Assembly (NCBI GenBank): GCA_038245905.1
Contig: JBBRRY010000039.1
Span: 1 to 29,265 of the forward strand
Reading direction: 5' to 3'
Length of the DNA stretch: 29,265 bases
Source of the DNA: Thermoanaerobaculia bacterium
GTDB taxonomy: Bacteria > Acidobacteriota > Thermoanaerobaculia > UBA5066
The position numbers were made by a program, and so were the translations under genes. Below, in pieces: positions 11,451 to 29,076 of this stretch. Under the pieces are notes generated by a model. The model was not told the DNA's origin. It saw only the letters and a program-made list of their open reading frames with translations, and made no database searches. Within the stretch, counting starts at the first letter, position 1. Each line of letters opens with the position of its first letter.

Positions 11451-14400
11451 GGCGAAGATGATAGCGCGGGCAACGTGAAGCCCACGACAAGACCACCCTC
11501 GGCGCGCGCGTGCGCGAAAACGCTCCCGGAGTGCCTCTCGGCGGCCTGCCGGACGGCCGCGAGACCCATCCCCGAGCCTCTGGACTTCGTCGAGAAAGCC
11601 GGGTCGAAGAGCTGTCCCGCGGCCTCCTCGGGCACACCCGGCCCGTCATCGGCACACGCGAAGCGGACCGCCGGCACGCCTGCGCCTAGGGTTGCGTTCT
11701 CCGCGGACAGGCGCACGCGGCCAGCGGACGTGCCGATCGCCTCCACCGAGTTGACGACGAAATTCGTGAGGGCATCGCGCACGAGGAACGGATCCGCCGC
11801 GAACCTCCGCAAATCTGAAGCGACTTCGACCTCGATCATCACGGTCTCGTGAGCTCGAAAATCGGCGGCGACCTCGTCGAGGAGCGCCGCGACCGCCTCG
11901 CGATCGAGGACCCGCCGTTCCACGACGGCCGGGTCACCGAATCGGCCGAGGCGTCCGATGCGGTGCGTCATGATTCCGACCTGCCGGAGGATTCCCGAGG
12001 CGATCTCGGAGAACGCCGTCTTCCGCACGAGCTCCGGGCGCTCTTCGAACCTCTGGAGACGCTCGGCGGCGAGCCGGATCGGCGTGAGCGGATTCTTGAT
12101 GTCGTGCGCGATCGATCGGGCCGCTTCGACCCACGCGGCGAGGCGGTCGGCGCGCAGGAAGTCCGTGAGGTCCTCGAGGAGGAGGATCGTGCGCGGCCCG
12201 CGCTCCTCGCCCGGCAGCGTTACGATCGCGACCCGAAAGAAGCGTTCGCCCGATGGGCCGGGAATGGCCACGCGAGTTTCGTACGGCGAGGGCCGCACGG
12301 CGGCCTCCTCGAGAGCCGCGCGAAGTGGTTCCCATCCCGCGCCTGACAGGCGCTCTGGGAGGGACCTTCCAGGGAGCAGGAGGTCCGCTGCCGGGTTCGC
12401 GAGGAGGACGGTCCCGTCGTCGCGGCGGAAGAGCAGAACGGCCGCGGTTAGATTTCCGAGGAGGCCCACGGCGGACGCTCGCTCCTCCGCGAGAGACGCC
12501 GTCCTCTCCTCGATTCGTGCCGACATCTCGGTAAAGGCGTCGACGAGGCGTGCGAGATCCGCGTTCGCCGGCCGGACGAGCGGCGGCAGGCGCCTCCCCT
12601 CGCCGACGTTCTCGGTTGCCGCGATGAGCTCTTCCAACGGCCCTCCCAGCGTGAGCGCCGCCCGGCCGCCGAGACCCACGGCGGCGAGGGCGACCGCCAC
12701 GGAGAGGAGGAGAAGGGCGTCGGCCGCCGACCGGACGGCCTCGTCTTCGGCGACGACCACCGCCAGCGCCTCTCGCCCGTCGGGCGAGACCGACTCGGCG
12801 GCCTCGACGACGCGTGGCGCACCGGGAACGACGGCACCACGCGACGAAAACGCCGACGGACGTCCTTCCGCGAGCTCCTGCGCGACCGCGGAATCGAGCA
12901 TTTCGCGCGCGACCTCGGCGGCAACTGGCAACGCCCGGGACGCCGCAACGAGCGTCCCATCGCGATAGCGGAGGAGATCCCAGCCGATGACGGCGGCCGC
13001 ACGGTTGAGCGCCGCCTCGGCCGAGAGGCCACCACCCGACGCGTCGCCTTCGAGGAGCCGCCTGCCCTCGGCGACGACGTCGCGCGAGCGCCGGGCCGTC
13101 TCGCGCACGGCGTGGCGCTCGAGGGCGACCCGGACGAAAACGACGCTCAGCGCGAGAGGAAGGGCGCCGAAGATCAGGACGAGCGCGACGAGCCGTGTGC
13201 GAAACGTGGCGAAGACGCGCCGCGGAAACCGGAGCGAACCTCGCCGGACCGGCGCGCCGGCAAAAAGGAACGGAACGACGACGAGAAGCGCGGCCTCCCC
13301 GGCAGCAACGGCGGCGCCCGCCACGGCGAGAGCCGATTCGGCGGGCACGGCGAATCCCGTGAAGCCGGAAGAGGAGGCCGAGACGCGCACGCGGCGCAGG
13401 CCGTCCGGCGTCAGGACGGTCGCCACCGCCTCCCCGGTCCGGCGGGCGCGTTCGAGGACACCGGCGGGCAGCTCGACGCCCTCGCCGCGGGCACCGGTCG
13501 TCCGTCCGGCGGCGTCCCACTCGAGCCTCTCGACCGCGACACGATCCGGCACGTCGCGCGACGCGACCGCCGAGAGCAGCGGATCCCGATCGGCCTCGCG
13601 CGGCCAAGGCACGTGCAGGAAGGCCGAGGGGAACCCGGCCGGATTCGAGGCCGTGAGGACGAGATCGGCCGCCCGCCGCCCCGGGTGGATGACGCCGAAG
13701 GACGAGACGATGGCGCCCAGCGGACTCCGAATCGTGAGCGTGTCGCCGAGCTCGGGAAAGGTCTCGTCGGCGCCCCGCGCCCAGAGCGCGCGCGCCAGAT
13801 CGTCGGGATTCGTACGCTCCCCCGCCGGCAGCCACGGCTCGAGCGACGGCGAGGCAACGCGCTGCTCCCAGCGGTGCACGGCCTCGGTGCGCGCTCCGGC
13901 CGCGTCGCCCCGCGCGAGCGAGTCCGCGCGCACGATCGCGGCGTCCGCGTGGCGAATGCGGCCGTCCGCGAGACCCGTGGCGAAGAGAAGAGTCGCCGCC
14001 GCGAATACGAAGACCGCGGTCGTGGCGCGCGCCAGGAGATCGGTCCCGGGGATCGGCTGAATGCGATTCGAGAGGGCCCATGACGCGGCGACCGACGCGA
14101 CGGTGAGGCAGGGAGCAAAGAACGAGGAACCGCCGGCGGCGAGAGCCGCCGCGAGAGCGGCCAAGCCGAGAGCGGCCGCCAGAGTGGTCCCGCGCCGCGA
14201 CGCGCCGCGACGAAGAAGGAGAGCCGCCGCGGCGAGCCCGGCCGCCGCGACAGCAAGAAGACCCGTCTGCGCGAGGAAATCCGGGAGGCCGCGCGGCACG
14301 AGACTCATCGTGTCGAAGAGATCGGGCGCCACGCGAGCGGCGCCGCGCCCCAGTGTGCCCGGGAGGAAGGCGAGCGGGAGTGCGAGCAGAATGCCGAGGG

Positions 14401-15346
14401 TGGCCGGTCGGGCGTCTCGGCCGCGCGCTTGACGGGCCAGCGCGCGCGCGAAGATGAGCGCCGCAAAACCCGTGAGGATGACGTCCGCGGGCGTGGCGAA
14501 GAGCCCGAGGAGCGCTGGCGGGTCCCATCCGGCGGCGAAGACGCCGGAGGCGCCCCGCGGCATTCCGAGGAGGAGCGCGAACCGCGCCGCCACGATTGCG
14601 GTCGCCGGCCTTCGGGCAGCGGCTCCGAGGGCGCCGGCAAGGAGCGCGAGGGCGATCGCCGGCATTCGGCTTCGGGCGCGGGCGGCGTCCTCTTCGGCGA
14701 CCTCGGGCTCGGACGCCTCCACGGACAAAGTTAGAAGCCGGTCGCGACGCTCGGATGCCGCGAGGCGGATCCTCAGGCGCGTCGGGTCGTTTCGAAGCCG
14801 GAGAAACTCGATCAGGTCGGGGCGGAGGATGCCCGTCGGATAGCGCCGCGTGATGACAAGCGTCCCGCGCGCCCCCCGCTCTCCGCGCGGAGCCACCCAG
14901 CCAAGCACGGCGCGCGTGACGTGGAACGACGTGACGAAGCCCGCCGTCGCGGTCCCGCGCTCGGCCTCCAGCCCGGAGGCCTCGCCCGCCCAAGCAACGG
15001 CGCGGCCCGTCCGGTCGAAGAAAACGGCGCCCCACCCAGGCCCCTCCGGGAGCGACTCCCCGAGAATCGAGAAGAGCCTCGCGGGCCGCACCTCGGCTCC
15101 CCCTCCGTCCGCGATCGCGGCGAATTCCCGCCCCCCGCTAATCCGGTCGGCGGTCCGCCTGAGCGCCTCGCCGTCTCGCTCGAGAGCCTCCTCGGCGGCC
15201 ACGAGAAAGAGCCGGGCGCGCGCCTGCCGCGCGTGGGCGCCGACGGGGGCGAGGCGAAGCGCGAGCGCGAAGACGAGCGCGACGAGCGCTGCGGCGAACA
15301 GCCCGCAGACGACGAGCCGTCGCGCGCGCAACGTCGTCGAGGCCAA
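11447..15346 (-). CDS. Large multi-pass membrane sensor histidine kinase (NtrY-like core with HAMP and PAS-like domains)
   Basis: H-box AHDIKNPLTPI, N-box LTNFVVNSVEA, G1 DDGPG, F/G2 FDPAFSTKSRGSGMGL. About 1300 aa with many TM helices. The start is uncertain (TTG 15346 or 15331). Confidence 0.88.
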   Translation of the reverse strand: MASTTLRARRLVVCGLFAAALVALVFALALRLAPVGAHARQARARLFLVAAEEALERDGEALRRTADRISGGREFAAIADGGGAEVRPARLFSILGESLPEGPGWGAVFFDRTGRAVAWAGEASGLEAERGTATAGFVTSFHVTRAVLGWVAPRGERGARGTLVITRRYPTGILRPDLIEFLRLRNDPTRLRIRLAASERRDRLLTLSVEASEPEVAEEDAARARSRMPAIALALLAGALGAAARRPATAIVAARFALLLGMPRGASGVFAAGWDPPALLGLFATPADVILTGFAALIFARALARQARGRDARPATLGILLALPLAFLPGTLGRGAARVAPDLFDTMSLVPRGLPDFLAQTGLLAVAAAGLAAAALLLRRGASRRGTTLAAALGLAALAAALAAGGSSFFAPCLTVASVAASWALSNRIQPIPGTDLLARATTAVFVFAAATLLFATGLADGRIRHADAAIVRADSLARGDAAGARTEAVHRWEQRVASPSLEPWLPAGERTNPDDLARALWARGADETFPELGDTLTIRSPLGAIVSSFGVIHPGRRAADLVLTASNPAGFPSAFLHVPWPREADRDPLLSAVASRDVPDRVAVERLEWDAAGRTTGARGEGVELPAGVLERARRTGEAVATVLTPDGLRRVRVSASSSGFTGFAVPAESALAVAGAAVAAGEAALLVVVPFLFAGAPVRRGSLRFPRRVFATFRTRLVALVLIFGALPLALSVVFVRVALERHAVRETARRSRDVVAEGRRLLEGDASGGGLSAEAALNRAAAVIGWDLLRYRDGTLVAASRALPVAAEVAREMLDSAVAQELAEGRPSAFSSRGAVVPGAPRVVEAAESVSPDGREALAVVVAEDEAVRSAADALLLLSVAVALAAVGLGGRAALTLGGPLEELIAATENVGEGRRLPPLVRPANADLARLVDAFTEMSARIEERTASLAEERASAVGLLGNLTAAVLLFRRDDGTVLLANPAADLLLPGRSLPERLSGAGWEPLRAALEEAAVRPSPYETRVAIPGPSGERFFRVAIVTLPGEERGPRTILLLEDLTDFLRADRLAAWVEAARSIAHDIKNPLTPIRLAAERLQRFEERPELVRKTAFSEIASGILRQVGIMTHRIGRLGRFGDPAVVERRVLDREAVAALLDEVAADFRAHETVMIEVEVASDLRRFAADPFLVRDALTNFVVNSVEAIGTSAGRVRLSAENATLGAGVPAVRFACADDGPGVPEEAAGQLFDPAFSTKSRGSGMGLAAVRQAAERHSGSVFAHARAEGGLVVGFTLPALSSSP

Positions 15347-15351
15347 GGGCG

Positions 15352-17043
15352 TTAGCGCGCCATCGGGATGCGGACGCCATGACGCGCGGCGGAGTCCAGG
15401 GCCTCTCCGTAACCGGCGTCCGCGTGGCGAACGATCCCCATGCCTGGGTCCGTCGTGAGGACGCGCGCGAGGCGTGCGGCCGCCTTCGGGGTTCCATCGG
15501 CAACCACCACCATGCCGGCGTGGATCGAATACCCGATCCCCACTCCGCCCCCGTGGTGGAGGGAGACCCACGTCGCGCCGGCCGCGGTGTTCAGAAGCGC
15601 GTTCAGGAGCGGCCAGTCAGCGATCGCGTCACTGCCGTCCTTCATGGCCTCGGTCTCGCGGTTCGGGGAGGCCACCGAGCCGCAGTCGAGGTGGTCTCGC
15701 CCGATCACGATCGGCGCCTTCACGCGTTCCGTCCGAACGAGCTCGTTGAAGGCGAGGCCAGCCTTCGCGCGCTCGCCGTAGCCAAGCCAGCAGATCCTCG
15801 CGGGCAGGCCCTGGAACGCGACGCGCGCCCCGGCAAGCGCGATCCAGCGCCGGAGCGCCGTATTTTCCGGGAATAGGCGGAGGATCTCTCGATCCGTCTC
15901 CGCGATGTCGGCCGGATCGCCCGAGAGAGCAACCCAACGGAACGGCCCCTTGCCCTCGCAGAAGAGAGGCCGGATGTAGAGCGGCACGAACCCCACGATG
16001 TCGTACGCGTTCGCGACGCCGGCCGTCACCGCCCCCGCTCGGAGATTGTTGCCATAGTCGAACGTGACGGCGCCCTTGGCCTTGAGGGCGAGCATCGCCC
16101 GAACGTGCGCGCCCATTGAGGAGATCGAGAGGCGGATGTACGCCTCGGGATCACCCGCGCGGAGGCGGAGCGCCTCCGCGTATGGAAGGCCGTGCGGCAC
16201 GTACCCGTTCAGCGCGTCGTGCGCAGAGGTCTGGTCCGTCAGGACGTCGGGCACGAGCCCGCGCGCGAGAAGCCGCTCGAGAAGGTCCACGGCGTTGGCG
16301 CGGACGCCGAACGAACGGGCCTCCCCGCGGTCCCGTGCCGCGAGCGCCCGGTCGATCCCCGAATCGAGGTCGTCGACGCGCTCGTCGATGTACCGCGTCG
16401 CAAGGCGCTTGTCGATGCGCGATCCGTCGACCTCCGCGACGAGCGCCGTGCCGCCGCACATCGTCGCGGCCAGCGGCTGCGCTCCCCCCATCCCCCCGAG
16501 ACCGGCCGTCACGACGAGCCGCCCCGCGAGAGAACCGTCCTGGGACGAGAGGTCGCGGCGCGCGGCCTCGGCGAAGGTCTCGTACGTGCCCTGGAGGATT
16601 CCCTGCGTGCCAATGTAGATCCAGGAGCCGGCGGTCATCTGACCGTACATCGTCAGGCCGAGGGACTCGAGCCGACGGAACTCGTCCCACGTTGCCCAAT
16701 GAGGCACGAGGTTCGAGTTCGCGATGAGAACGCGGGGGGCATCCTCGTGCGTCCGGAAGACTCCGACCGGCTTCCCGGACTGGACGAGGAGGGTCTCGTC
16801 GTCGCCGAGGCGGCGGAGGGCGTCGAGGATCGCCATGAGGCACTCGGGATTCCGGGCCGCCTTACCGGACCCGCCATAGACGACGAGGTCCTCGCGGCGC
16901 TCGGCGACCTCCGGGTCCAGGTTGTTGAGGAGCATCCGGTACGGTGCTTCCGTGAGCCAGGAGCGGCAGGTGAGCGCGGTCCCCCGGGGGACCGCGGGCG
17001 GCGAAAACAAGGCAGGCGCCGATGGGCCGGACATGGCCTGCAT
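15352..17043 (-). CDS. hutU: Urocanate hydratase
   Basis: [58 protein letters not shown] and HHGGGVG. Confidence 0.98.
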
Positions 17044-17079
17044 GTTAGCCGCTGGGGCGCATCTAACGCACCGCGTCAG

Positions 17080-17121
17080 ATTTCTCTTGACAGAAATTAC
17101 GCGGCGCGTTACCTTGAGATC
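17080..17121 (+). promoter_or_regulatory. Sigma70 promoter of the phaR-like gene with a putative operator
   Basis: TTGACA (17087-17092), 17 nt, TACCTT (17110-17115), 6 nt, ATG 17122, with no SD. The -35 is bracketed by the inverted repeat ATTTCT...AGAAAT. Confidence 0.75.
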
Positions 17122-17853
17122 ATGAGCGAACTTCGCCGGATCGTCCGCTACCGCAACCGCAAGCTCTACGAGGCACGCGAGCGACGTTTCGTGACCTTGT
17201 CCGATCTCGCGAAGGCCGTATCCCTCGGCGACCGGGTGGAGGTCATCGCCGCGGATTCGGGCGAGGACATCACCGCCCGTGTCCTCTCCCGCGCCCTCGC
17301 GTCGAGTCGGACCCCGGTCCTCGCCTCGGCGGACACGCTTGCCCGGCTTCTCCGGGCTGGCAGCGAAGCCGCGGAAACGGTCGCGGAGGCTGTCGAGCTC
17401 GTTGGTGGCACCCGGGTGGCGGACTCGCTGCGCCGGGCCGCGAGCCCCGAGCGCCTCGGTAGAACTCTGGCCCCTCTCACCCGCCGGCTCGAGGACGCCC
17501 GCCAGGACGTGGAGAAAATCGTGGGCGGACTCGTTGAAAAAGGCCGCCTGACATGGGAAGAAGGGACGCGCCTGCGCGAGGATGTCGGCCTCGTCTTCCG
17601 CGAGAGCCTCGCCGACGTGGTCGGCAGCGTCCGCGACATCGCGAGCCGTCTCTCACCCAGCACGCAGCCCCAGCTCGCGAAGGAAATCGGTGACCTCAGG
17701 ACACGTCTCGCCCAGCTCGAATCGCTCGCCAAGAGCGCCTTCCCCGCGGAGTTTCCGAAGCCAGTTCACGCGCGGCGTACCTTGGCGCCCGTCTCCAAAC
17801 CCTCCGTCAAGACACCCGTCCGCAAACAGAACAGAAGAAGGAGAACAGCATGA
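17122..17853 (+). CDS. PhaR-like regulator: PHB-accumulation regulator DNA-binding domain plus C-terminal phasin-like domain
   Basis: N-terminus [20 protein letters not shown]...GEDITARVL resembles PhaR (IKKYxNRRLYD...GEDLT). The later [16 protein letters not shown] and [14 protein letters not shown] are phasin-like. Confidence 0.82.
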
Positions 17854-18365
17854 AGACATCCACCCGCAAGACCGCACCGAAGCTTCCTTTCAACGTCCCG
17901 GCCCCCGTCGAGAAGGCCCTGAAGACGGCTGGCAGCCGCTTCGACGCCTTCAGCGTCAAGGCCAAGAGCGTCGCCGCCAAGACCGAAAAGCAGGTCAAGG
18001 TCGCGGCAAGAGACCTCAAGAAATCGGGTCAGTCTTTCGCGAAGAATCCGCGCGCGTTCGTGGAAGAAGTAATGGAGTCGGGCCGCGATCTCGGCATGAA
18101 GCTCCGGGCGAACGCCGGCAAGGTCGGCGGCGACGTGCAAGACCGCGTCCAAAAGGCCAGTGCCGAGGCCGCGCGACGAGCCGAAGGCGTCGCGAAGAAC
18201 GTGACCGAGACCGTCGGCACGGCCGTCGAGAAGGGCCTCCACGGCCTGAACGTTCCGACCCGCAAGGAGCTCCGCTCGCTCGCCGCCAAAGTCGACGGCC
18301 TCGGCAAGAAAATCGACGCGCTCAAAACCCGCAAGGCTCCGCGCACGACGCGCCGCGCGCGCTGA
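17850..18365 (+). CDS. Phasin-family (PhaF/PhaI-like) granule-associated protein
   Basis: Ala/Lys-rich amphipathic helices and C-terminal LHGLNVPTRKELRSLAAKVDGLGKKIDAL, with basic tails. SD AAGGAG and ATGA overlap. Confidence 0.78.
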   Translation: MKTSTRKTAPKLPFNVPAPVEKALKTAGSRFDAFSVKAKSVAAKTEKQVKVAARDLKKSGQSFAKNPRAFVEEVMESGRDLGMKLRANAGKVGGDVQDRVQKASAEAARRAEGVAKNVTETVGTAVEKGLHGLNVPTRKELRSLAAKVDGLGKKIDALKTRKAPRTTRRAR

Positions 18366-18392
18366 ACCGGTCCGAAATCGGATAGAATTCCC

Positions 18393-18420
18393 GGCGCTGC
18401 CGCCAAGGCGGCGCCTTTTT
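18393..18420 (+). terminator. Probable intrinsic terminator after the phaR-phasin pair
   Basis: GC hairpin (GCCGCC-AA-GGCGGC, extendable with GGCGC/GCGCC) followed by TTTTTCATTT. Confidence 0.65.
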
Positions 18421-18436
18421 CATTTCAAGAAAACAC

Positions 18437-19729
18437 ATGGCCGGTCACTTTCGACAGCCCGAGCCCGAAACACCCGGGAAAGCGTTTTCCGAACGCGCGT
18501 TCAAGCCGTTTCCATCTCCCGTCCGCAAGCGCCTCGGCGTCGTTTGCGCGGGCGGGGGCGTGACGGGAGCGATCTACGAGATCGGCACGCTCGCGGCGCT
18601 CGAGGACCGGCTCGAGAACCTCTCGATCAACGACTTCGACGTCTTTGTCGGCGTTTCCGCCGGCGCCTACATCTCGGCCTTGCTCGCGAACGGCGTCACG
18701 CCGGGCGTGCTCTTCCGGAACGTGACGCGCTCGGCCGGCACACGAACCGACATCGACGACCTCGCGCTCTTTCGCCTCAACGTCGGCGAGATCGCGGGCC
18801 GCCTCGCCACGGCTCCCTTCACGATCCTCGACGCCGCCTGGGACTTCTACAAGAACCGCCGCGAGACCACGCTCACCGACCTCGTGCAGTCGCTCGGGCA
18901 GCTCCTGCCCTCCGGGTTGTTCCAGAACGAGGGGCTCGAGGCCTGGATGCGGAAGTGGCTCTCGCAGACGGGCCGCACGAACGACTTCCGGCGCCTCGCC
19001 AAGACCCTCCGCCTCGTCGCCGTGGACCTCGACTCGGGCGAGACGACGGCGTTCGGCTCCCCCGGCCACGATGACGTTCCCATCTCGCAGGCCGTCGCCG
19101 CGTCGTGCGCCATTCCGGGGCTCTACCGGCCGGTCCGGATCGACGGCGTCGACTACATCGACGGCGGCGTCCGGAAGACCGCGCACATCTCGCTCGCGCT
19201 CCGCGAACGTTGCGGCCTCACGATCTGCGTGAACCCGCTCGTCCCCATGCACATCACGCATTCCGAGAGCGGCATCAGGCGCCTCGGCATCGAGGAGGCG
19301 GGACCGCTCAGGAGCCGCGGCCTCACGACGATCCTCGACCAGGCGTTCCGCGTGACGCTCCACTCCCGGCTGCGCTACGGCCTTACGCGCTACCGGCGCG
19401 AGGTCCCCGACGCAGACATCGTCGTCTTCGAGCCGAAACCGGAAGACCTGCCCCATTTCATGCGAAACATCATGCGGACGTCGGGGCGCATCCGCATCGC
19501 CGAATACGCGTACCGTTCGACGATGACGCTCCTCGACTCCGACTTCAAGCGCTTCCAGCGCGTGTTCGCCAAGCACGGCCTCACGCTGCGCCCCGCCTGC
19601 GCGCGGGACCTGTCGCGCGTGAAGCTCCACGCGGATCGCACGAGCGAGCGCACCTCGACGCGCCTCGCCGCCTCCCTTCTCGCGCTCGAGGCCGACCTCG
19701 ACCGGATGACGGCGGCTCGCGGCCGCTGA
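18437..19729 (+). CDS. Patatin-like phospholipase/lipid hydrolase
   Basis: Oxyanion GGGVTG, nucleophile GVSAG, AASCAIPG and catalytic DGG. Confidence 0.92.
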   Translation: MAGHFRQPEPETPGKAFSERAFKPFPSPVRKRLGVVCAGGGVTGAIYEIGTLAALEDRLENLSINDFDVFVGVSAGAYISALLANGVTPGVLFRNVTRSAGTRTDIDDLALFRLNVGEIAGRLATAPFTILDAAWDFYKNRRETTLTDLVQSLGQLLPSGLFQNEGLEAWMRKWLSQTGRTNDFRRLAKTLRLVAVDLDSGETTAFGSPGHDDVPISQAVAASCAIPGLYRPVRIDGVDYIDGGVRKTAHISLALRERCGLTICVNPLVPMHITHSESGIRRLGIEEAGPLRSRGLTTILDQAFRVTLHSRLRYGLTRYRREVPDADIVVFEPKPEDLPHFMRNIMRTSGRIRIAEYAYRSTMTLLDSDFKRFQRVFAKHGLTLRPACARDLSRVKLHADRTSERTSTRLAASLLALEADLDRMTAARGR

Positions 19730-19769
19730 GACGATGTCTCCGCGCGCTATGATCGCGCCGGAGATCCCC

Positions 19770-21083
19770 TTGAAGCCGTACATCCGAGCCGCCCTCGCGG
19801 CAGTTCTATCCGTCCTCCTCGCTGCGGCGCCGGTTCGCGCCTGCTGTGACGACGTGCTGAGCTGCGCGGGCGCCGTCGCGTCCGGCGGGCTCACGTGCGT
19901 GATCGAGCTGGCTTTGGACGCGCTGAAATCCGCGCTGCGTCACGCGACTCAGGAGCGCGACGACGCGCGCGCCGGGTTCGAGAGCGGGCTCGCGGCGTCG
20001 ACGGCCGAGGCGAAGACCGTCCTGAACGGCTGGAAGAAGGCCGCGGACGACGCGGCGGCCGACGCGGAGCGCTCGGCCCAGACGGCCGCAAAACTCGTCG
20101 GGGACGACGAAGCCCGGCTCCGGAAGCTCACGACCGCCTCGGCCACGATGGCGACGAACGTTCCCCCGGCTCGGGCGCCGGCCGGCTCGAAGCTCTCGAC
20201 TTCGACGGGAGGGCGGGCGTTTCAGACTCCGTCACCTACGGCGTCGACGCATCAGGCGGCGCGGGTGTCGGCGGCGGAAATGTTGGCGCTCCTCAAGGAC
20301 GACTCCCTGCGGGACATGCGCCTGGGGATCGAGGACGAGAACAAGAAGACCCACGCACTGTCGGAGAATGCGGGGAGGGCAGCCTCCCACTCCCTGCAGG
20401 CGATGGAGAGGTCGGCCGCGTTCCAACGCGCGGGGTTCGCCATATTCCTCGCAGCGATCGTCGACGTCCTCGCCGTCCTGAACAATGGACTCTCGAACCC
20501 CCTGAAAGCCCCCGACATGGTCATCCTCGCCGTCAACGACCTTGCAGTGGCCGAGACCTTGTTCGCAACCGACGTTTTGCCCGCCGTCGATCGCGAGACG
20601 AAGGCGCGCGAGGATTACGCGGACGCGCCCCGTCCTGAGGCCGATGCTGCTGAAGACCACGCCCGCCGCGCACGCGAGATCCTCGCGAAGCTCGAGCGCG
20701 CCGTCCGCCTTCAGACCCTCGCCGAGAGGCAGAACGTCGCTCAGGAGCTCCGCTCCGCGACGACACCCGCGCCGGTCCGCCACGTCCGCGCCACGCTCGC
20801 CGCGTCGGCGGCCTTCTCGACATTCTCGAAGGCGCTTTCGAAGCGCGTCGGCCTGATGCACGCCGAGCTCCAGAAGGCGAAGCCGGCGGGAGCCCCGGAC
20901 GTGACGCTCTTCCGAACGAAGCTCTCGACAGACCTCTCGGCGCAATTCCGTGGGAAGAGCGCCGCCGAGACCGCCCGAATCCGCGACACGCTTCTCGCCG
21001 ACGCCCGCCGCCGATTCGCGTACGACCCGAAGACGCTCGCGGGCGTCGAGAGGCTCGTCACGGACGCGGCCCGCGTCCACTGA
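19770..21083 (+). CDS. Hypothetical secreted helical protein with an N-terminal Cys motif
   Basis: Probable TTG start at 19770 after TATGAT and GGAG. The signal peptide MKPYIRAALAAVLSVLLAAAPVRA is followed by CCDDVLSC...GGLTC, then Ala-rich helices. The alternative start is 19734. Confidence 0.7.
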   Translation: MKPYIRAALAAVLSVLLAAAPVRACCDDVLSCAGAVASGGLTCVIELALDALKSALRHATQERDDARAGFESGLAASTAEAKTVLNGWKKAADDAAADAERSAQTAAKLVGDDEARLRKLTTASATMATNVPPARAPAGSKLSTSTGGRAFQTPSPTASTHQAARVSAAEMLALLKDDSLRDMRLGIEDENKKTHALSENAGRAASHSLQAMERSAAFQRAGFAIFLAAIVDVLAVLNNGLSNPLKAPDMVILAVNDLAVAETLFATDVLPAVDRETKAREDYADAPRPEADAAEDHARRAREILAKLERAVRLQTLAERQNVAQELRSATTPAPVRHVRATLAASAAFSTFSKALSKRVGLMHAELQKAKPAGAPDVTLFRTKLSTDLSAQFRGKSAAETARIRDTLLADARRRFAYDPKTLAGVERLVTDAARVH

Positions 21084-21105
21084 CAAGCCCGCGCCCGCGG
21101 TCCCG

Positions 21106-22101
21106 CTATTCGCCGGTGAAGATGTTGCCGCGCCGCGAGAGGCGCGAGTCGATCATCGTCTGGAGCGTCGAACGCACCTGGTCCGCGAGCTCGTTCACGA
21201 TCATGGGGCGGTCGGCGACCTCCGGCCCGTGACCGAACACGATGGGCTTGCCGATGTCGATCCACCATTTCGTCGGCAGCGGCAGGACGCCGAGCGGGCC
21301 GAGGAGCGGGAACGTCGGAGTCAACGGGAAATACGGGAGCCCGAGCGGCCTGCCTATGAAATCCATGCGCGTAAGGTTCGGGTGGATCTCCTCGGCGCCG
21401 ACGACCGACACCGGAATGACCGGCGCACCCGTCTGGAGGGCGAGGCGCACGAAGCCGCCGCGCCCGAAACGCGCGAGGCGGTAGCGGTCGCGAAAGAGCT
21501 TGCCAACGCCCTTGACGCCCTCGGGAAACACGCCGACGAGCTCGTCACGGCGCAGCAGCCGTTCCCCGTTCTCGGGGCAGGCGCGCACCTCGCCCATATC
21601 CCGGAGCCACGGCTGAAGGAACGGAAGCGTGGTGAACATGTCGAGGACGAGCATTCGGGCGGTGCGATGCGCGGAGTGCTCTCGCGCGATGCCGCGCTTG
21701 ACCATTGCGCCGTCCCACGGCAGGACGCCGGAATGATTCGCCACGAGAAGCGCGCGGCCCGCCATCGGGATGTTGTCCACTCCCGACAACGTCACGCGCC
21801 ACCACACGGAGTAGAAGAAATCGAAGAGCTCGGTCCAGGATCGAGCGGCCACCTCGTTGTAGCCGAAGTCGTCCAGATCGAAAGTGTGCGAGCGGTTCCG
21901 GAAGAGGTTCCAGAGATCCACGAGAGCCCGCGGCGATTTGAACTCCGGATGTCCGTCGAGGAACCGGGCGGCCTCGCCCAGCATGGCATGGAGAAAATCG
22001 TCCGGATTCTGCGGAAGGAGCGAGGGCGCGAATCCCGAGGCCCCTCCGGCGGGAGCGGCGGGCGGCGCCGCGTCGGGAGCGGGGTGGCGGCGCGCGCTCA
22101 C
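21106..22101 (-). CDS. Lysophospholipid/glycerol acyltransferase (PlsC superfamily)
   Basis: NHSGVLPWD (HxxxxxD), VFPEGVKG, FGRGGFVRLAL and VVGAEE. GTG 22101 overlaps the SDR stop. Confidence 0.9.
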   Translation of the reverse strand: MSARRHPAPDAAPPAAPAGGASGFAPSLLPQNPDDFLHAMLGEAARFLDGHPEFKSPRALVDLWNLFRNRSHTFDLDDFGYNEVAARSWTELFDFFYSVWWRVTLSGVDNIPMAGRALLVANHSGVLPWDGAMVKRGIAREHSAHRTARMLVLDMFTTLPFLQPWLRDMGEVRACPENGERLLRRDELVGVFPEGVKGVGKLFRDRYRLARFGRGGFVRLALQTGAPVIPVSVVGAEEIHPNLTRMDFIGRPLGLPYFPLTPTFPLLGPLGVLPLPTKWWIDIGKPIVFGHGPEVADRPMIVNELADQVRSTLQTMIDSRLSRRGNIFTGE

Positions 22102-23228
22102 GAGGCCACCCCCGCGGTTCCCGGCCGGTGGAGAGGATGGACGCGCTGCTCGAATGTGTAACGCGCGGACCGGGCCGCATCCGCGACCGCGTCGAAGTCC
22201 ACGAGGCGCCCCGTTCCAAAGCGGGCGCGCGCGGTTTCGAGAACGACCTCGAGAGTCGTGTGCTGCGCGGTGAAGCCCAGGAGCCGCCGGGCCTTCGCGC
22301 CGTCGACCACGCAGAGATAACGGAAGTAATGCGCGTGGACGCCCGGCATCAGGCCGACTCCCGCGAGCCACGCGGCCTCGTACAGAGCGTAGGCGAGCGG
22401 ATGCGGCACGGGCACCCCGAGCGAACCGAAGAGCAGGCGCACGGTGGAGAGCGGCACGACACCTTCGGGCGCGATATTGAAGACGCCCTGCGCCTCGGGA
22501 CGGTCGAGCGCCCGCACGAGCGCGTCGACGGCGTCGTCCGGGTCGAGAGCCTGCAGGAGAGGGTCGTACCCCATGAGCTGCCACGAGAACGGGGCCGCAA
22601 AGAGCCGCGTGCGATAGTCGCGTACCTCGGGCGAAAGGAGCGGGACGAATCGCAGGATCTGCACGCGTGCGTCGGGATGGCGCCGCACGTGTGACCGGGC
22701 GTGGCTCTCGGCCTCCACGAAGTCACGCACGAAGCGGTCTTCCGCGTCGGGCTGGAGCGGGTGGTCTTCCGTGAGAAAATTCGGGTTGTCGCCGCGCGCG
22801 CCATACACGAGAGACGTCGAGCCGAGGAGGATGCGCGGGATCTTCGCCTCGCCGGCAGCCGCAAAGACGTGCAAAGCGCCGATGGAATTCAGCTCGTGGG
22901 CATAGGTCGTCTGGCGGGACGGGCTCCTGAGCTGCGCGAGATGGACGATGGCGTCCGGTCTCTCTTCCTTCAGGAGCTTGAAGAGCGTGCCGTCCGCGAA
23001 GGGCAGGTTGAGATCGAGGAAGCGGTGCTTCACGTCGGGCAGGTCCGCCGGCGGCACGAGGTCGAACACCACGACGTCGCGGTCGCCACGCGCGACGAGC
23101 GCGCGGACGAGGCGTTCCCCGAAGAAACCGCTGCCTCCCGTGACGACGACCTTCCGCCGCCGCGTCAGGGTGTCCGCGACCTTCGGAAATCGCACGACGC
23201 GCCCGCCGGCGCCGGCTTTTCTCGCCAT
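22098..23228 (-). CDS. NAD-dependent epimerase/dehydratase (extended SDR)
   Basis: VVVTGGSGFFG, IVHLA, STSLVYGA...NFLTEDHPL and GYDPLLQ. Confidence 0.88.
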   Translation of the reverse strand: MARKAGAGGRVVRFPKVADTLTRRRKVVVTGGSGFFGERLVRALVARGDRDVVVFDLVPPADLPDVKHRFLDLNLPFADGTLFKLLKEERPDAIVHLAQLRSPSRQTTYAHELNSIGALHVFAAAGEAKIPRILLGSTSLVYGARGDNPNFLTEDHPLQPDAEDRFVRDFVEAESHARSHVRRHPDARVQILRFVPLLSPEVRDYRTRLFAAPFSWQLMGYDPLLQALDPDDAVDALVRALDRPEAQGVFNIAPEGVVPLSTVRLLFGSLGVPVPHPLAYALYEAAWLAGVGLMPGVHAHYFRYLCVVDGAKARRLLGFTAQHTTLEVVLETARARFGTGRLVDFDAVADAARSARYTFEQRVHPLHRPGTAGVAS

Positions 23229-23235
23229 GGGGCCC

Positions 23236-23538
23236 CTACCTCTTCCGCCCGGAAGCCTTGCGGGCGGGCTTCGCCGCCGGTCTCGCGCTCCGCGCCTTCA
23301 GGGATTCGAGCTCGGCCTCCATCTCGGCGAGGCGCTTCTCCAGCTTCGAGATGTCCTTTCGCGTCGCGACGTTCATCGCCTTCAGGCCCTCGGCCACGCG
23401 CTTGTCGACCTCTTCCTTGGCGGCGATGCCCTTTTTCAGGACCTCGATGAAGGCCGGGTTCGCCATGAGGTTGTTGGAAATCTCGGTGAGGAAGCCCTCG
23501 CCTCGGGCCCGGAGCTGATCGAACAGGGATTCGGACAT
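23236..23538 (-). CDS. Small phasin-like coiled-coil protein with a basic tail
   Basis: LKAMNVATRKDISKLEKRLAEMEAELESLK, then the histone-H1/PhaF-like tail RPAAKPARKASGRKR. Confidence 0.7.
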   Translation of the reverse strand: MSESLFDQLRARGEGFLTEISNNLMANPAFIEVLKKGIAAKEEVDKRVAEGLKAMNVATRKDISKLEKRLAEMEAELESLKARSARPAAKPARKASGRKR

Positions 23539-23595
23539 GCGCTACCCTTTCGCGGAAGCCTGGGGTCGGTCGGCCTCCTGCAGGAATCCAGCATT

Positions 23596-25581
23596 ATGCG
23601 TCCACCCCTCCTCGAAAGCCTCTTTTCCCGCCGGTTCCTCGTCGTGTCAGGCAAGGGCGGCGTCGGGAAGACCACGGTCGCGGCTGCGCTCGCGAAGCTC
23701 GCCGCGGACGCGGGCCGCACCGTCCTTCTCGTCTCCACGGACGGGCGCGGGGACGCGGCGGCGCTCCTCGGGAAGCAGGACGCGGGCTACCACGAGGCCG
23801 AGCTCGCGCCGCGCCTCCATGGCCTCACGGGCGACTTCGACGCCCTCCTGACCGACTTCGTCCACGCCGTCGCGCCCGTCCGGCTGCTCGCCGACCGCCT
23901 CCTCGCCGTGCCGGCGTTCCGATTCTTCACGCGGGCGACGCCCGGCCTCCCCGATCTCCTCCTCCTCGGCAAGATCCGGGAGATCCTCAGGCGAAAGCGA
24001 TCGACCGCGCGCGCCCCCCGCGTCGATCTCGTCGTGCTCGACGCGCCCGCCACCGGCCACGCGCTTTCTCTCGTCGCGCTCCCCCGCACGCTCCTCGCGA
24101 CGGTTCCCGTGGGGCCCGTACGAAAGCTCGCGGTGTGGCTCGACGAACTCCTGTCGGACCCGGAGCACGCGGCGCTCGTGGTCGTCTCGGCGCCCGAGGA
24201 TTTCGCGGCGAAGGAAACGGAGGAGTTGATCGCGGGCGCATGGGAGAAGGCAGGTCTCGCCACGAGCCTCGTCGTCGTGAACCGGGTCGGGCGAGGGGGA
24301 AAAGAGGGAGAAGAGATTCTGCTGAAGAGGGGGACCGGGAATGCGCTCGTCGAGATACCGGAGATCGAGGCCGACGAGTTTGAAGAGGAAGAGAGGATTT
24401 CTTCGAATGGTCCTGTGCGCCCTGCGCCCTCTGAGCCGAATGGCCGCGTGACCGCACAGGCCAGGCAGTTTTTCTCTGCCTTTCTCACCACATTCGAAGA
24501 AAATACGGCGTCTCCCTTGCGAGCAGTCCGCAGTGAGAAGACGGCGCGCGCCCCTGCTCCGGAAAGCAAAAATCCCCTCTTTCCCTCCTTCGTCCTCCCG
24601 CGCCCCCTCGACCTCCGCCCCTGGCTCGACGACGAAAAGCTCATCGTCCTGACGGGCCCCGGGGGCGTCGGGAAGACGACGCTCTCGGCGGCTCTCGGAA
24701 TCGCGGCGGCCCGCCGCGGACGGCGCACGCTCGTCCTCACGGTCGATCCCGCCAGGCGCCTCGCGCAAGCCCTCGGACTCTCGGGCCGGGAGGCGCGCTC
24801 CGGTCGCCCCACGGAGGTGAACGTGAGCGGCATCCCGAAGGGCGGCGGTGGCCGTCTCTTTGCGCTCCAGATCGACCCGAAGGCCACGTTCGAGCGCCTC
24901 CTCGCGCGCACGGCGAGCCCCCCCGCGCTCGAGAGGATCCACGCGAACCGCCTCTACTCCGGGCTCGTCGACTCCTTGCCCGGTGTCCTCGAGTACATGG
25001 GGGTCGAGGCGCTCCACGAGCACTCCGCCGATCCTGACTTCGACCTCCTCGTGCTCGACACGCCACCGGCCGCCCGCGGCCTCGATTTTCTGGCGGCGCC
25101 GGAGCGCCTCGTCACTCTCCTCGAGAACGACGCCCTGCGCTTCTTCCTCCGGCGCGACGGGTTCTTCGGGCGCGCCTTCTCCGAGGCCTCGCGCGGGGGC
25201 GCGGCGCTCCTTCGCGCCGCGGACAAGATCCTCGGGCTCGGTTTCCTCGCCGACCTCGCCGACTTCTTCCGCGCGTTCGACGGCCTCTACGACGGCTTCC
25301 GGGACCGCAGCCGCGAGGCGACCCGGCTCCTCTCCGAGGGGCGTTACCTCGTCGCGACGACGCTCGACTTCTCCGCGCTCGCGACATCCGTCGACCTCGC
25401 CGCCGGCCTCGCGCGCCGCGGGACCCGGCCGGGCCTGCTCGTGAATCGCGTGAGCGCACGCCAGGCCTCGCCCCTCAATCTTCCCGGGCCGCTCGCCGCC
25501 CTGCCGGCGCTCGCCGTTGCCGAGGCAGACGCGCCTCCGGACGACTTGCCCTCGGTCCTCGCGTCGGCGCTCGCGGACTAG
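23596..25581 (+). CDS. Fused tandem ArsA/Get3-like P-loop ATPase
   Basis: Domain 1: SGKGGVGKTT, VSTD, DAPATGH. Domain 2: TGPGGVGKTT, TVDPARRLAQALG, DTPP...LDFL. They are joined by a ~100-aa linker. Start ATG 23596. Confidence 0.88.
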   Translation: MRPPLLESLFSRRFLVVSGKGGVGKTTVAAALAKLAADAGRTVLLVSTDGRGDAAALLGKQDAGYHEAELAPRLHGLTGDFDALLTDFVHAVAPVRLLADRLLAVPAFRFFTRATPGLPDLLLLGKIREILRRKRSTARAPRVDLVVLDAPATGHALSLVALPRTLLATVPVGPVRKLAVWLDELLSDPEHAALVVVSAPEDFAAKETEELIAGAWEKAGLATSLVVVNRVGRGGKEGEEILLKRGTGNALVEIPEIEADEFEEEERISSNGPVRPAPSEPNGRVTAQARQFFSAFLTTFEENTASPLRAVRSEKTARAPAPESKNPLFPSFVLPRPLDLRPWLDDEKLIVLTGPGGVGKTTLSAALGIAAARRGRRTLVLTVDPARRLAQALGLSGREARSGRPTEVNVSGIPKGGGGRLFALQIDPKATFERLLARTASPPALERIHANRLYSGLVDSLPGVLEYMGVEALHEHSADPDFDLLVLDTPPAARGLDFLAAPERLVTLLENDALRFFLRRDGFFGRAFSEASRGGAALLRAADKILGLGFLADLADFFRAFDGLYDGFRDRSREATRLLSEGRYLVATTLDFSALATSVDLAAGLARRGTRPGLLVNRVSARQASPLNLPGPLAALPALAVAEADAPPDDLPSVLASALAD

Positions 25582-27098
25582 TCGAGATTCGCGAGGAGGC
25601 CTTCGAGATCGCCGCCGAGGACGGCCCGTGCGCCCTCGATGGCCGGCGCCGCATGGCGATCCGCGTCCCAGAACGGCACGCGCGCGCGCACGAGCCGGTG
25701 CGCCTCTTCGAGCGGCGGAGACGACCGGAGCGGCCTCCGGAGGTCCAGGGCCTGCGCGGCGGCCAGGAGCTCGATCGCGAGCACGGTCTCGAAGAGGTCG
25801 ACGTTTTTCAGGAGCTTGCGGGCCGCGATCGGGCCCATCGAGACGTGGTCTTCCTTCCCCGCCGACGTCGGAATCGAGTCCACGGACGCCGGGAAGGAAT
25901 TCGACTTCGCCTCCGAGACGAGCGCCGCCGCCGTGACGTGGATCATCATGAGGCCCGAGTTCAGGCCGCCGTCACGCGTGAGAAAGGCGGGCAGATCCCC
26001 GGAGAGCGCCGGGTTGACGAGCCGCTCGGTGCGCCTCTCGGACAGCGAGGCCATGTCGGCGGTCGACGCGGTGAGGAGATCGCACACGAGGGCCACTGGC
26101 GCCGCGTGGAAATTCCCACCCGAGACGAGCGTGCCCGTCTCCGCGAAGACCATCGGGTTGTCGGTCGCGGCGTTCATCTCGATCTCGATCACGCGCCGCG
26201 CGTGCGCCGCCGCGTCGCGGGCCGTGCCGTGCACCTGCGGGATGCAGCGCAGCGCGTACGCGTCCTGGACGACGCCGCAGTCGCGGTGGCTCTCGCGGAG
26301 GCCTGAATGGGCGAGGAGCGCCCGAAGGTTGCCCGCCGAGACGATCTGGCCGGGATGCGGGCGCGCCGCGTGGATGCGCGGGTCGAACGCGGCATCGGTG
26401 CCCTTGAGCGTGTCCAGCGTGAGCGCCGCCACGAGATCCGCCGCCTTCAGGAGCCGGAGGAGGCGGTGGAGCGCGAGGGCGCCGAGCCCCGTCGTGAGCT
26501 GCGTCCCGTTGATGAGAGCGAGCCCTTCCTTCGCTTCGAGGACCGCGGTGGAAAGGCCCGCGGCGGCGAGCGCCTCGGCGGACGGCAGGATCTTCCCGTT
26601 CCATTCGACGTCGCCTTCTCCGACGAGGGCGAGCGCGAGGTGCGCGAGAGGCGCGAGATCGCCCGATGCACCGACCGAGCCCTGCTCCGGGATCACCGGG
26701 TGGATTCCCTTGCCGAGGCACGCGAGAAGGAGCTCGAGCGTCTCTCTTCGGATGCCCGAAAATCCCTTCGCCAGGCAGTTCGCGCGGAGAAGCATGACGG
26801 CTCGCACCGCGGGCGGGTCCAGAGGGCGTCCCGTGCCGGCCGCGTGGCTCCGCACGAGATTCAGCTGGAGCTGCCCGAGCTTCTCCCGCGGGATGACGAC
26901 GTCGGCGAACTTCCCGAAACCGGTCGTGACCCCGTAGACGACCCGGTCCTCCCGGACGGCGCGGTCGATGACGGCGCGCGCCGCGGCGACGCGGACCGCG
27001 GCGCCGGGCGCAAGGACCGCGGATGCCTCGCCGCGGGAAATCGAAGAAAGATCCTCCAGTGTGAGAGATTCCCCGTCCAGCTCGACGACGCGCTTCAC
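25578..27098 (-). CDS. hutH: Histidine ammonia-lyase
   Basis: VYGVTTGFG, LVRSHAAG, MIO-forming GSVGASGDLAPL, KEGLALING, QDAYALRCIPQV and SGGNFH. Start GTG 27098 or ATG 27116. Confidence 0.97.
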   Translation of the reverse strand: MKRVVELDGESLTLEDLSSISRGEASAVLAPGAAVRVAAARAVIDRAVREDRVVYGVTTGFGKFADVVIPREKLGQLQLNLVRSHAAGTGRPLDPPAVRAVMLLRANCLAKGFSGIRRETLELLLACLGKGIHPVIPEQGSVGASGDLAPLAHLALALVGEGDVEWNGKILPSAEALAAAGLSTAVLEAKEGLALINGTQLTTGLGALALHRLLRLLKAADLVAALTLDTLKGTDAAFDPRIHAARPHPGQIVSAGNLRALLAHSGLRESHRDCGVVQDAYALRCIPQVHGTARDAAAHARRVIEIEMNAATDNPMVFAETGTLVSGGNFHAAPVALVCDLLTASTADMASLSERRTERLVNPALSGDLPAFLTRDGGLNSGLMMIHVTAAALVSEAKSNSFPASVDSIPTSAGKEDHVSMGPIAARKLLKNVDLFETVLAIELLAAAQALDLRRPLRSSPPLEEAHRLVRARVPFWDADRHAAPAIEGARAVLGGDLEGLLANLD

Positions 27099-27134
27099 GA
27101 TGCCGCATTCTCGCATCGGCGGTACAATTCCAAA

Positions 27135-28509: not shown

Positions 28510-28586
28510 GGGCCGTTAGCTCAGTTGGTTAGAGCACATCCCTTTTAAGGATGGGGTCCTGGGTTCGAGTCCCAGACGGCTCACCA
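28510..28586 (+). tRNA. tRNA-Lys (anticodon TTT)
   Basis: Acceptor GGGCCGT/ACGGCTC, anticodon arm CATCC-CTTTTAA-GGATG, T-arm GGTTCGAGTCC and encoded CCA. TACACT -10 at 28492-28497. Confidence 0.97.
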
Positions 28587-28607
28587 GCCTTTTCCTCTCT
28601 GGCCGGA

Positions 28608-28636
28608 CTGACGCTGGGGCGAAAAGCCGATAGAAT
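28608..28636 (+). promoter_or_regulatory. Probable promoter of tRNA-Glu
   Basis: CTGACG, 17 nt, TAGAAT, followed by a GC-rich discriminator CCGCCG. Confidence 0.55.
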
Positions 28637-28652
28637 CCGCCGTTCCTCGGGT

Positions 28653-28729
28653 GCCCCCGTCGTCTAGCGGCCCAGGACGCTGCCCTTTCAAGGCGGAGAT
28701 CGCGGGTTCGAATCCCGCCGGGGGTACCA
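28653..28729 (+). tRNA. tRNA-Glu (anticodon TTC)
   Basis: Acceptor GCCCCCG/CGGGGGT, anticodon arm CTGCC-CTTTCAA-GGCGG, T-arm GGTTCGAATCC and encoded CCA. Confidence 0.97.
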
Positions 28730-29040: not shown

Positions 29041-29076
29041 CGCGCTATCCTTTTCCTTTCGAAGGAGTCGAACGCG

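Follow-up and report, generated by a model that had tools for sequence, protein, structure and literature searches.

We describe here a cluster of eight adjacent genes, A to H, at positions 17122–25581 of a window of 29,265 nucleotides, the window being the whole of contig C39 of a metagenome-assembled genome (MAG) of 3.8 Mb that is 96% complete and not closed. The titles of near-identical loci place it in the Acidobacteriota, class Thermoanaerobaculia. An earlier reading of the DNA, made from its letters alone and called the sequence-only reading below, had suggested that these genes could be a complete lipid-body module for a storage lipid other than polyhydroxyalkanoate (PHA). Since the window DNA has a G+C content of about 70%, it contains many long spurious open reading frames (ORFs), and the genes were therefore called from frame plots of the third-position G+C together with the translations. 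The eight adjacent genes of the earlier reading are borne out by both.

The cluster sits between hutU (urocanate hydratase, 15352–17043, minus strand) and hutH (histidine ammonia-lyase, 25578–27116, minus strand), which were named by reading their translations. On the plus strand lie A (17122–17853), which encodes a PhaR-type regulator of 243 amino acids (aa), B (17850–18365), a phasin-family protein of 171 aa whose start overlaps the A stop, C (18437–19729), a patatin-like lipase of 430 aa, and D (19734–21083), an Ala-rich protein of 449 aa without a family. The minus strand carries E (21106–22101), an acyltransferase of the PlsC/LPLAT fold with 331 aa, F (22098–23228), a protein of 376 aa with the fold of the extended short-chain dehydrogenases/reductases (SDRs), and G (23236–23538), a phasin-like protein of 100 aa that is the first gene of a G-F-E operon. 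H (23596–25581, plus strand) encodes a fused double ATPase of the ArsA/Get3 fold with 661 aa; it is divergent from G, with 57 bp between the two. The GTG start of E overlaps the F stop in the sequence GTGA, and G ends 8 nt ahead of F. From these overlaps and spacings, the transcription units A-B(-C-D), G-F-E and H are predicted. The results given below show that the eight genes are real and functionally linked, though D is a variable insert.

Families and motifs of the encoded proteins

Residues 7–59 of A match PHB_acc_N (PF07879) with 52.8 bits, the Pfam cut-off being 25, and the PhaR-type DNA-binding domain ascribed earlier to one gene of the cluster is thus present. As a whole, the protein falls below the PhaR equivalog model (TIGR01848, 40.3 bits vs a cut-off of 109.45), and its C-terminal 184 residues match no Pfam family. 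This C-terminal part is helical and ends in a basic tail, with a charge of +10 in the last 30 residues. In a profile comparison A was found to be unlike B or G (hhalign probability 0.35% and 7.9%, respectively). The sequence-only reading had seen phasin-like helices in three genes, those starting at 17122, 17850 and 23236; as the C-terminal part of A has no family and does not resemble B or G, two of the three calls stand, namely those of B and G.

B matches the Phasin family PF05597 with 43.2 bits (cut-off 28.8), and its overlap with A is kept in orthologous loci. G reaches 25.5 bits with the same model, which is under the cut-off. G, for which 22 orthologues were aligned, shows homology in a profile comparison with the last 90 residues of B (hhalign probability 96.4%, E 1e-9), and weak PspA_IM30 and coiled-coil matches are also seen in G. 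Both proteins have basic tails, with +9 for B and +5 for G in the last 30 residues.

The spacer between hutU and A is 78 bp long and contains two operator-like palindromes and a putative sigma-70 promoter of A-B, all on the plus strand. The first palindrome (17064–17078, 15 bp, of the form T-N-ACGC-N3-GCGT-N-A) lies just upstream of the −35 box. The promoter at 17087–17115 consists of the −35 box TTGACA (17087–17092), a 17-nt spacer and the −10 box TACCTT (17110–17115), and the second palindrome (17097–17111) is located within this spacer and overlaps the −10 box. The promoter was read by eye, and a simple promoter scan did not list it. Both palindromes keep their position in 32 upstream regions that were aligned by eye, and the loci also share the TTGACA box and a TATCTT/TATATT box. 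The full palindrome pattern has only 7 matches in the 3.8 Mb genome, 2 of which are at the A promoter. In all 14 of the distant operons described in the next section, two to three palindromes of a related form, TGCCGC-N3-GCGGCA, are found in the same places, at an internal promoter before the PhaR-like gene. By analogy with the PhaR-PhaP and MLDSR-MLDS systems discussed below, this operator layout is the architecture of a putative autorepressor for a regulator-phasin unit.

The sole other intergenic match to the A-type operator in the genome is TGACGCAATGCGTAA, near C1:337980 (about 337950–338260). It overlaps a promoter-like site, TTGACG-17-TATATT, upstream of a Cys-rich, zinc-ribbon-like ORF of 72 aa, and is divergent from a nitronate-monooxygenase-like gene, the families of both having been assigned by eye. 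A genome-wide regulon of A is not claimed. After B, at 18393–18415 on the plus strand, there is a terminator-like hairpin of 9 pairs, of which 8 are G-C, with a T run behind it; as a class, terminator-like sites are not more numerous in the region than in shuffled sequences.

The patatin C matches PF01734 with 106.5 bits. Its GxSxG serine and DGG aspartate, which form the Ser-Asp dyad and had been reported as intact, were read directly and are indeed so, as is the GGGxxG oxyanion motif, and 34 of 37 C homologues have all three. For D, no family was found in Pfam or NCBIfam, and a search of the protein atlas gave no usable match; the protein has an Ala/Leu-rich N-terminal segment and a CCDDVLSC motif. 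Only 2 of 54 loci have a homologue of D. In 22 of 36 loci C is directly next to E, and in the others inserts of about 0.7, 1.35 or 2.3 kb are found at this convergent junction. On this distribution, D is taken to be an accessory insert at the C/E junction, outside the conserved module.

The acyltransferase E scores above the cut-off with PF01553 (Acyltransferase, 53.7 bits) and below it with the DAGAT family PF03982 (19.1 and 18.7 bits, cut-off 22). Its catalytic block NHSGxLPxDG corresponds to H-x6-D in all homologues read, and the canonical H-x4-D is not found in them. The stretches FPEG and GRGGFVRLAL..PIIP are invariant in 20 E sequences and are also conserved in a wider set. The sole match of E among the sequences of the PDB is the PlsC structure 5kym, with the catalytic Asp falling in an alignment gap. 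In its own genome E is the sole DAGAT-like match, and we consider it to be a candidate ester-forming enzyme.

F matches the Epimerase family PF01370 with 69.6 bits and keeps the GxxGxxG motif, in the form TGGSGFFG or TGGAGxLG in the close clade; distant and actinobacterial homologues have a degenerate form of it. Alignment to 3vps places F-V-R-D-F where the catalytic YxxxK would be. In an alignment of 49 rows, of which one was unreadable at this column, Tyr is found in none of the 48 others, and the homologues of the window clade and of loci L088–L090 have [F/W]-x-[R/Q]-D-x instead. As the catalytic Tyr-Lys pair is missing, F is unlikely to be a redox enzyme. Of the earlier description of a PlsC-type acyltransferase coupled to an extended SDR, the coupling is thus real, as the GTGA overlap indicates, and the SDR is one without its catalytic residues.

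The pairing of F with E is not confined to this cluster. Adjacent and co-directional genes resembling F (30% identity) and E (44–46%) were found in Rhodococcus, Salsipaludibacter and a MAG of the Nitriliruptorales, and none of these three genomes has a G-like neighbour of the pair at a tblastn threshold of E ≤ 0.01. The Rhodococcus pair is near GNAT, HAD, Glrx-like and HemA genes. Fusions of F and E are seen in many metagenomic proteins of about 598 aa (P0245 was checked) and in Nocardia wallacei. These occurrences suggest that the F-E unit is older than the cluster. Close homologues of C were found neither in the three actinobacterial genomes nor in two genomes of the family labelled f39 (see below), which puts C outside this cross-phylum unit. 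The E homologues of actinobacteria and myxobacteria have DAGAT scores of about 15–16 bits. In one MAG labelled Holophagales (L046, 7397–9556), F and E are in one open frame of 720 aa, which is either a natural fusion or a stop lost in the assembly.

The E homologues of Myxococcus xanthus and Terrabacter start with Lys/Ala-rich, histone-H1-like N-terminal tails, which are followed by acidic helices. This may be read as a Rosetta-stone hint, in that a basic tail and helices are found elsewhere in one chain with E, as they are here in the separate proteins G and B. We have also considered that these N-terminal extensions could be F-like, and this was rejected (probability 0.06% and 0.11%).

The ATPase H matches ArsA_ATPase (PF02374) with 153.6 bits over three stretches and has two P-loops, GKGGVGKTT and GPGGVGKTT, so that its earlier assignment as a double ArsA/Get3 ATPase is confirmed. 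When its halves were compared with the sequences of the PDB, the best match of the N-terminal half was Rv3679 (6bs3_A, 73.1 bits) and that of the C-terminal half Rv3680 (6bs3_B, 136.5 bits), that is, the two BagAB proteins of Mycobacterium tuberculosis. With the NCBIfam models the scores all stay under the cut-offs (BagB, 225.5 vs 521; BagA, 141.4 vs 400; TIGR00345, 132.9 vs 135). BagA and BagB are fused in the clade of H and encoded by separate genes in the examined actinobacteria and in most of the other Acidobacteriota. Within the gene there is a near-perfect inverted pair of 13 nt, with the core TTCTTCGAA / TTCGAAGAA, at 24397–24409 and 24491–24504, with its arms 81 nt apart; it is in frame and falls in the linker between the two ATPase halves, where the third-position G+C dips.

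Recurrence of the genes and presence of storage synthases

A scan of species genomes with H gave 55 loci, in which the proteins of the window were then searched by tblastn. Of these loci, 34 contain the complete set of seven (A, B, C, E, F, G and H), 32 of them between hutU and hutH, with amino-acid identities down to 32–60% (in MAGs labelled Holophagales). Fifteen shorter loci have the part of the set that their contig allows, five have H alone, four of these being actinobacterial, and one gave no match. Partial sets also occur elsewhere, with A,B,C and E,F,G in G097, E,F,G in G083 and F,E,C in G308.

In addition, 14 regions were fetched from other families, chosen because BagB-like and phasin matches adjoined on one contig. 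Thirteen of these distant loci have the co-directional order BagA-BagB-PhaR_N-phasin(s)-patatin, with one or two phasins, and the fourteenth differs only in giving no patatin match; the calls were checked with Pfam in two of the 14. What is conserved across the phylum is thus a core operon of ATPase, regulator, phasin and patatin, and not the eight-gene set. The cluster in the window is, as judged from these comparisons, a clade-specific rearrangement of this Acidobacteriota operon, in which the ATPase halves have been fused and a second conserved unit (G, F, E) has been added. Lack of co-localisation in other genomes had been named as a finding that would speak against the proposed module; instead, the seven genes were found together in 34 of 55 loci and the core in 13 of 14.

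The operon search covered the Acidobacteriota and three actinobacterial genomes. The earlier expectation that similar gene sets may exist in actinobacteria or myxobacteria holds for E, F and H, and does not hold for the phasins, as far as the three actinobacterial genomes are concerned. In the literature searched, no description was found of the operon or of phasin, patatin and ArsA together, and likewise no work on phasins with wax esters in Acidobacteria or on Rv3680 with Get3. Among the papers listed on PhaR and phasins together with triacylglycerol and lipid droplets, none had a bearing on the subject.

We now consider the storage synthases. The genome from which the window comes, 96% complete as stated, contains no match to PhaC_N, to class III PhaC or to WS/DGAT (PF03007); in a Rhodococcus genome used as control, the WS/DGAT search gave two matches. 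The WS/DGAT search was also blank in three close relatives, and G009, a species of the same genus, carries the gene. PhaC_N is found in 0 of the 29 genomes of the genus, and in the family there are only marginal matches (24–25 bits), in 3 of 63 genomes. The earlier observation that the window has no phaC thus extends to the genome. Neither phaA nor phaB had been seen in the window, and no thiolase or acetoacetyl-CoA reductase was found among the scanned ORFs, the scan covering the window apart from about 8846–9870 and 28516–29265. A canonical phaCAB elsewhere had been considered as a possible explanation of the phasins, and the absence of PhaC from the genome, from the genus and from the 31 ATPase-bearing genomes described next does not bear this out.

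To see how the genes are distributed in the phylum, five markers were searched in a sample of 301 Acidobacteriota genomes. Matches were found to E in 20 genomes (with a threshold of 1e-30 in the synthase tally), to the phasin family PF05597 in 52, to PhaC_N in 10, to the BagB half of H in 31 and to WS/DGAT in 36. The 31 ATPase-positive genomes span 15 families, according to a reading of the family labels. A phasin is present in 30 of these 31 vs 22 of the 270 other genomes, PhaC_N in 0/31 vs 10/270 (some of the latter being partial, class-III-like matches), WS/DGAT in 17/31 vs 19/270, and WS/DGAT or E in 27/31 vs 23/270; as the sampled genomes are related to each other, these two-by-two comparisons overstate the independence of the counts. 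Of the 20 E-positive genomes, 14 have the ATPase, and 43 of the 52 phasin-positive genomes have no PhaC. On the same contig, a phasin match lies within 6 kb of BagB in 20 of the 31 genomes and WS/DGAT within 9 kb of it in 8.

Lipid genes are also found as neighbours of the operon in single lineages. In L112, a long-chain acyl-CoA synthetase is directly upstream of BagA, and the second phasin has a histone-H1-like tail. In L120, genes for ACBP, PHA_gran_rgn, a ParA-like ATPase and WS/DGAT are found within about 4 kb past the patatin, and L118 resembles the window in that the patatin is faced by an E-like gene (32% identity). In the family f39, F and E form one protein of 583 aa; its acyltransferase half has a DAGAT score of 22.1 bits, which attains the cut-off. 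This fused gene is surrounded by genes for an ABC1 atypical kinase, an SRPBCC lipid-binding protein, a CrtI-like amine-oxidase flavoprotein, a lycopene-cyclase/halogenase-like flavoprotein and HMG-CoA reductase, and the BagA/BagB pair is 5–6 kb away from it (L094, 4397–18718; L098, 174–13720). The f39 neighbourhood may be a set for an isoprenoid-lipid body. The proposed link to a non-PHA lipid gains comparative support from the enrichment of WS/DGAT or E and from the lipid genes beside the operon in some lineages.

As to the surroundings of the cluster, hutU and hutH are usually neighbours in one operon, while here the 8.5-kb module separates them. The same placement is seen in 32 loci, and the module is located elsewhere in G097, G083, G308 and the 14 distant loci. 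At the start of hutU there is a conserved CATGTTAGCC motif. Upstream of hutU, in the numbering of the window, lie a CDP-alcohol phosphatidyltransferase (8034–8846), one or two ORFs at 8846–11645, without a Pfam family in the part scanned (9870–11645), and a very large histidine kinase of about 1370 aa (11447–15571), whose N-terminal 1100 residues match no family. Repeats in the cluster region were found at chance level only. Among sequencing runs, a single DNA run contains the stretch, possibly that of the source sample, and no RNA run was listed for it.

A storage-lipid reading and its rivals

On this evidence, we suggest that the cluster encodes a regulator-coat-lipase-ATPase machinery for a neutral-lipid storage body that is not PHA, a reading to which we give even chances of being correct. 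The identity of the lipid, each of the binding steps and the function of the ATPase are what we infer from the protein families and their arrangement. According to this proposal, E, held or regulated by F, would move an acyl chain to a neutral acceptor, and a hydrophobic body would form. B and G would coat this body and anchor it through their basic tails to the nucleoid or anionic lipid. A, bound to the two palindromes at its own promoter, would repress A-B until new hydrophobic surface titrates it off, a step that is modelled on PhaR and MLDSR. The stored ester would be hydrolysed by C, and H would spend ATP in order to deliver, arrange or position coat proteins or enzymes. The most economical explanation of the distribution is that the regulator, coat, lipase and ATPase are constant and the ester synthase is interchangeable, being WS/DGAT in some lineages and F-E in others, including the present one.

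The complete lipid-body module of the sequence-only reading can be retained only in part. The linkage of the genes, the absence of PhaC and the enrichment of WS/DGAT or E agree with it. On the other side, D is an insert, F lacks the Tyr-Lys pair, the phasin part of A did not stand, and the conserved core is smaller than eight genes.

It is also necessary to point out a number of observations that weigh against a storage body. E is far better as a PlsC (53.7 bits) than as a DAGAT (19.1 bits, sub-threshold), which makes a lysophospholipid acceptor equally natural. No amphipathic moment above that of shuffled sequence was found in B, G and A, the observed value being reached by 15%, 52% and 21% of the shuffles, respectively. 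No hydrophobic 19-mer was found in A–C and E–H and no tail anchor in the proteins of the cluster, so that no obvious Get3 client is encoded there. The family PF05597 also matches the control genomes of Synechococcus elongatus, Thermus thermophilus and Methanosarcina acetivorans, none of which is, to our knowledge, a PHA producer; the family name is thus no proof of a granule and a poor guide to PHA metabolism. As regards the distribution, neither the ATPase nor PhaC is present in 13 of the 52 genomes with a phasin, four of the ATPase-positive genomes lack both E (at 1e-30) and WS/DGAT, and the relatedness of the sampled genomes counts here as well. BagAB is found without any PF05597 match in the three actinobacterial genomes, and in Salsipaludibacter it is beside a YbjN-like gene and PBP1A, a neighbourhood of the envelope type. 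Finally, we know of no lipid body in these uncultured bacteria, the search for one having been confined to literature on phasins and wax esters in Acidobacteria.

Several of these observations would be accommodated by a module for membrane phospholipid remodelling or stress, in which C would be a phospholipase A, E would re-acylate the lysolipid (Lands cycle), the phasins would be PspA-like protectors, and H would chaperone hydrophobic proteins or lipids. E is foremost a PlsC/LPLAT protein with 5kym as its sole PDB sequence match, patatins are typically phospholipases, the weak PspA_IM30 and coiled-coil matches of G would fit, BagAB near PBP1A in actinobacteria is an envelope context, and a droplet coat should have an amphipathic signal, which is absent here. 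However, a PhaR-type repressor with a conserved operator layout would then be left unexplained, as would the enrichment of WS/DGAT (17/31 vs 19/270) and the presence of WS/DGAT, ACBP and acyl-CoA synthetase beside the operon, and the core operon is without E in 17 of the 31 genomes. We regard remodelling as unlikely. Another scenario takes the association of ATPase and phasin as the central one, which is indeed the tightest link in the data (30/31, adjacent in 20/31), tighter than that of either with an acyltransferase. BagAB with phasin adaptors would here handle or position some other cargo in an ATP-driven manner, such as a nucleoid-tethered structure or hydrophobic proteins, like McdB or PhaM with ParA-type ATPases, and the lipid genes would be incidental. 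DNA binding is suggested by the basic tails, with charges of +5 to +10, and by the likeness of the phasin 2 tail in L112 to histone H1, a ParA-like gene is found in the L120 neighbourhood, and BagAB occurs without phasins in actinobacteria. Yet 13 of 14 loci have the patatin in this co-directional operon too, the acyltransferases are strongly enriched (27/31 vs 23/270), and the loci read show no other cargo gene that is conserved next to the operon, so that this scenario is, in our estimation, distinctly improbable.

The phasins and the PhaR-like regulator could also serve a PHA-like polyester granule made by a synthase beyond the models used. PF07879 and PF05597 are after all named for PHA systems, a PHA_gran_rgn gene is near the L120 operon, and the genome is 96% complete and not closed. 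Against this, PhaC_N is absent from all 29 genomes of the genus and all 31 ATPase-bearing ones and was yet detected in 10 other sampled genomes, the genome of the window has no class III PhaC, and no alpha/beta-hydrolase gene is conserved in the operon. We hold a hidden polyester to be very improbable. The least credible option is that the genes are unrelated neighbours that have been kept by descent within one clade. The eight-gene arrangement between hutU and hutH is clade-specific, and D is clearly an unrelated insert, which would be in line with such an origin. However, sub-sets of the genes recur in other orders and contexts across at least 15 families, fusions (F-E and BagA-BagB) and overlapping stop and start codons are seen, and the co-occurrence is strong. 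The recurrence and co-occurrence data bring this option close to being refuted, and we see hardly any chance for it.

Relation to known systems and implications

The storage-body reading places the cluster in a known kind of system, that of coat and regulator of granules or droplets, with the Get3-like ATPase as the new element. In the PhaR-PhaP circuit of PHA granules, the repressor is titrated by the hydrophobic surface. As in the PhaR-PhaP systems of Cupriavidus and Paracoccus, A has the PhaR N-terminal domain, is followed by a phasin gene and has paired palindromes over its own promoter. The differences are that no PhaC is found in the genome, the genus or the 31 ATPase-bearing genomes, that A fails the equivalog model and its C-terminal part is without a family, and that the operon also has a patatin and a Get3-like ATPase.

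The working proposed for A, B and G with their basic tails is that of the MLDSR-MLDS system of Rhodococcus jostii. There, a regulator and the major droplet protein are encoded in one operon and the regulator binds its own operator/promoter (PMC5504291). The same text describes that MLDSR is sequestered by triacylglycerol droplets and that MLDS links the droplets to DNA (PMC5504291). The protein families are different ones, and the likeness claimed is in the described working; PF05597 has no match in the Rhodococcus genome searched.

The two halves of H match the BagAB proteins of M. tuberculosis (Rv3679-Rv3680, 6bs3) in order and with both P-loops, the difference being that H is one fused chain and scores under the NCBIfam cut-offs. 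As described in the literature, the mycobacterial BagAB pair is known only from phenotypes with glycerol/nitric oxide and with citrate (PMC10597346). For the F-E unit, a possible counterpart is the Rv0501 (galE2)-Rv0502 pair of mycobacteria, the surroundings of the Rhodococcus pair matching those in the Rv0501-Rv0509 hemA region of M. tuberculosis. A difference from the cluster is that the actinobacterial pairs have no G-like neighbour. Rv0502 is presented as an uncharacterised, conserved and non-essential PlsC homologue (PMC10593935).

A further comparison is offered by the cyanoglobule, a neutral-lipid body of bacteria, whose proteome includes ABC1 kinases, the DGAT2-like protein Slr2103, a START protein, CruP and CrtO (PMC12223511). 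The likeness is in the use of an ester synthase of the LPLAT/DGAT2 type instead of WS/DGAT, and the same families are neighbours of the fused F-E gene of f39. By contrast, E is under the DAGAT cut-off, and the coat described there consists of fibrillin and PG18 and not of phasins. Patatin, ArsA and Get3 are not named in the text on that proteome (PMC12223511).

A wider proposal joins several of these comparisons. BagAB would be dedicated neutral-lipid-body factors that have phasins as partners and a PhaR-type sensor of the surface, and F-E would be a third, so far unrecognised family of ester synthases beside WS/DGAT and Slr2103. We put this forward as a tentative and rather doubtful proposal. 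If it is true, the "phasin" and "PhaR" families would mark lipid droplets and not polyester in a whole phylum, and the glycerol sensitivity reported for mycobacterial bagAB mutants would be due to the loss of a glycerolipid sink.

If the storage-body reading holds, annotation as "PHA phasin" or "PHA regulator" would be misleading in 43 of the 52 phasin-bearing Acidobacteriota genomes, in which no synthase is detectable. The operon gives a first genomic context to two conserved sets that have been unexplained, namely the BagAB ATPases and the pair of SDR-like and PlsC-like proteins, the latter shared with actinobacteria and myxobacteria, and both sets would then be testable by simple lipid assays. 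The cluster may include a new ester synthase, and a compact regulator-coat-lipase-ATPase cassette could serve the engineering of lipid storage. The molecular detail on bacterial lipid droplets comes mainly from a few actinobacteria and cyanobacteria. The present cluster points to an undescribed kind of bacterial fat-body machinery and, if the reading is true, would bring a dominant soil phylum, not yet open to study in culture, within the reach of droplet biology.

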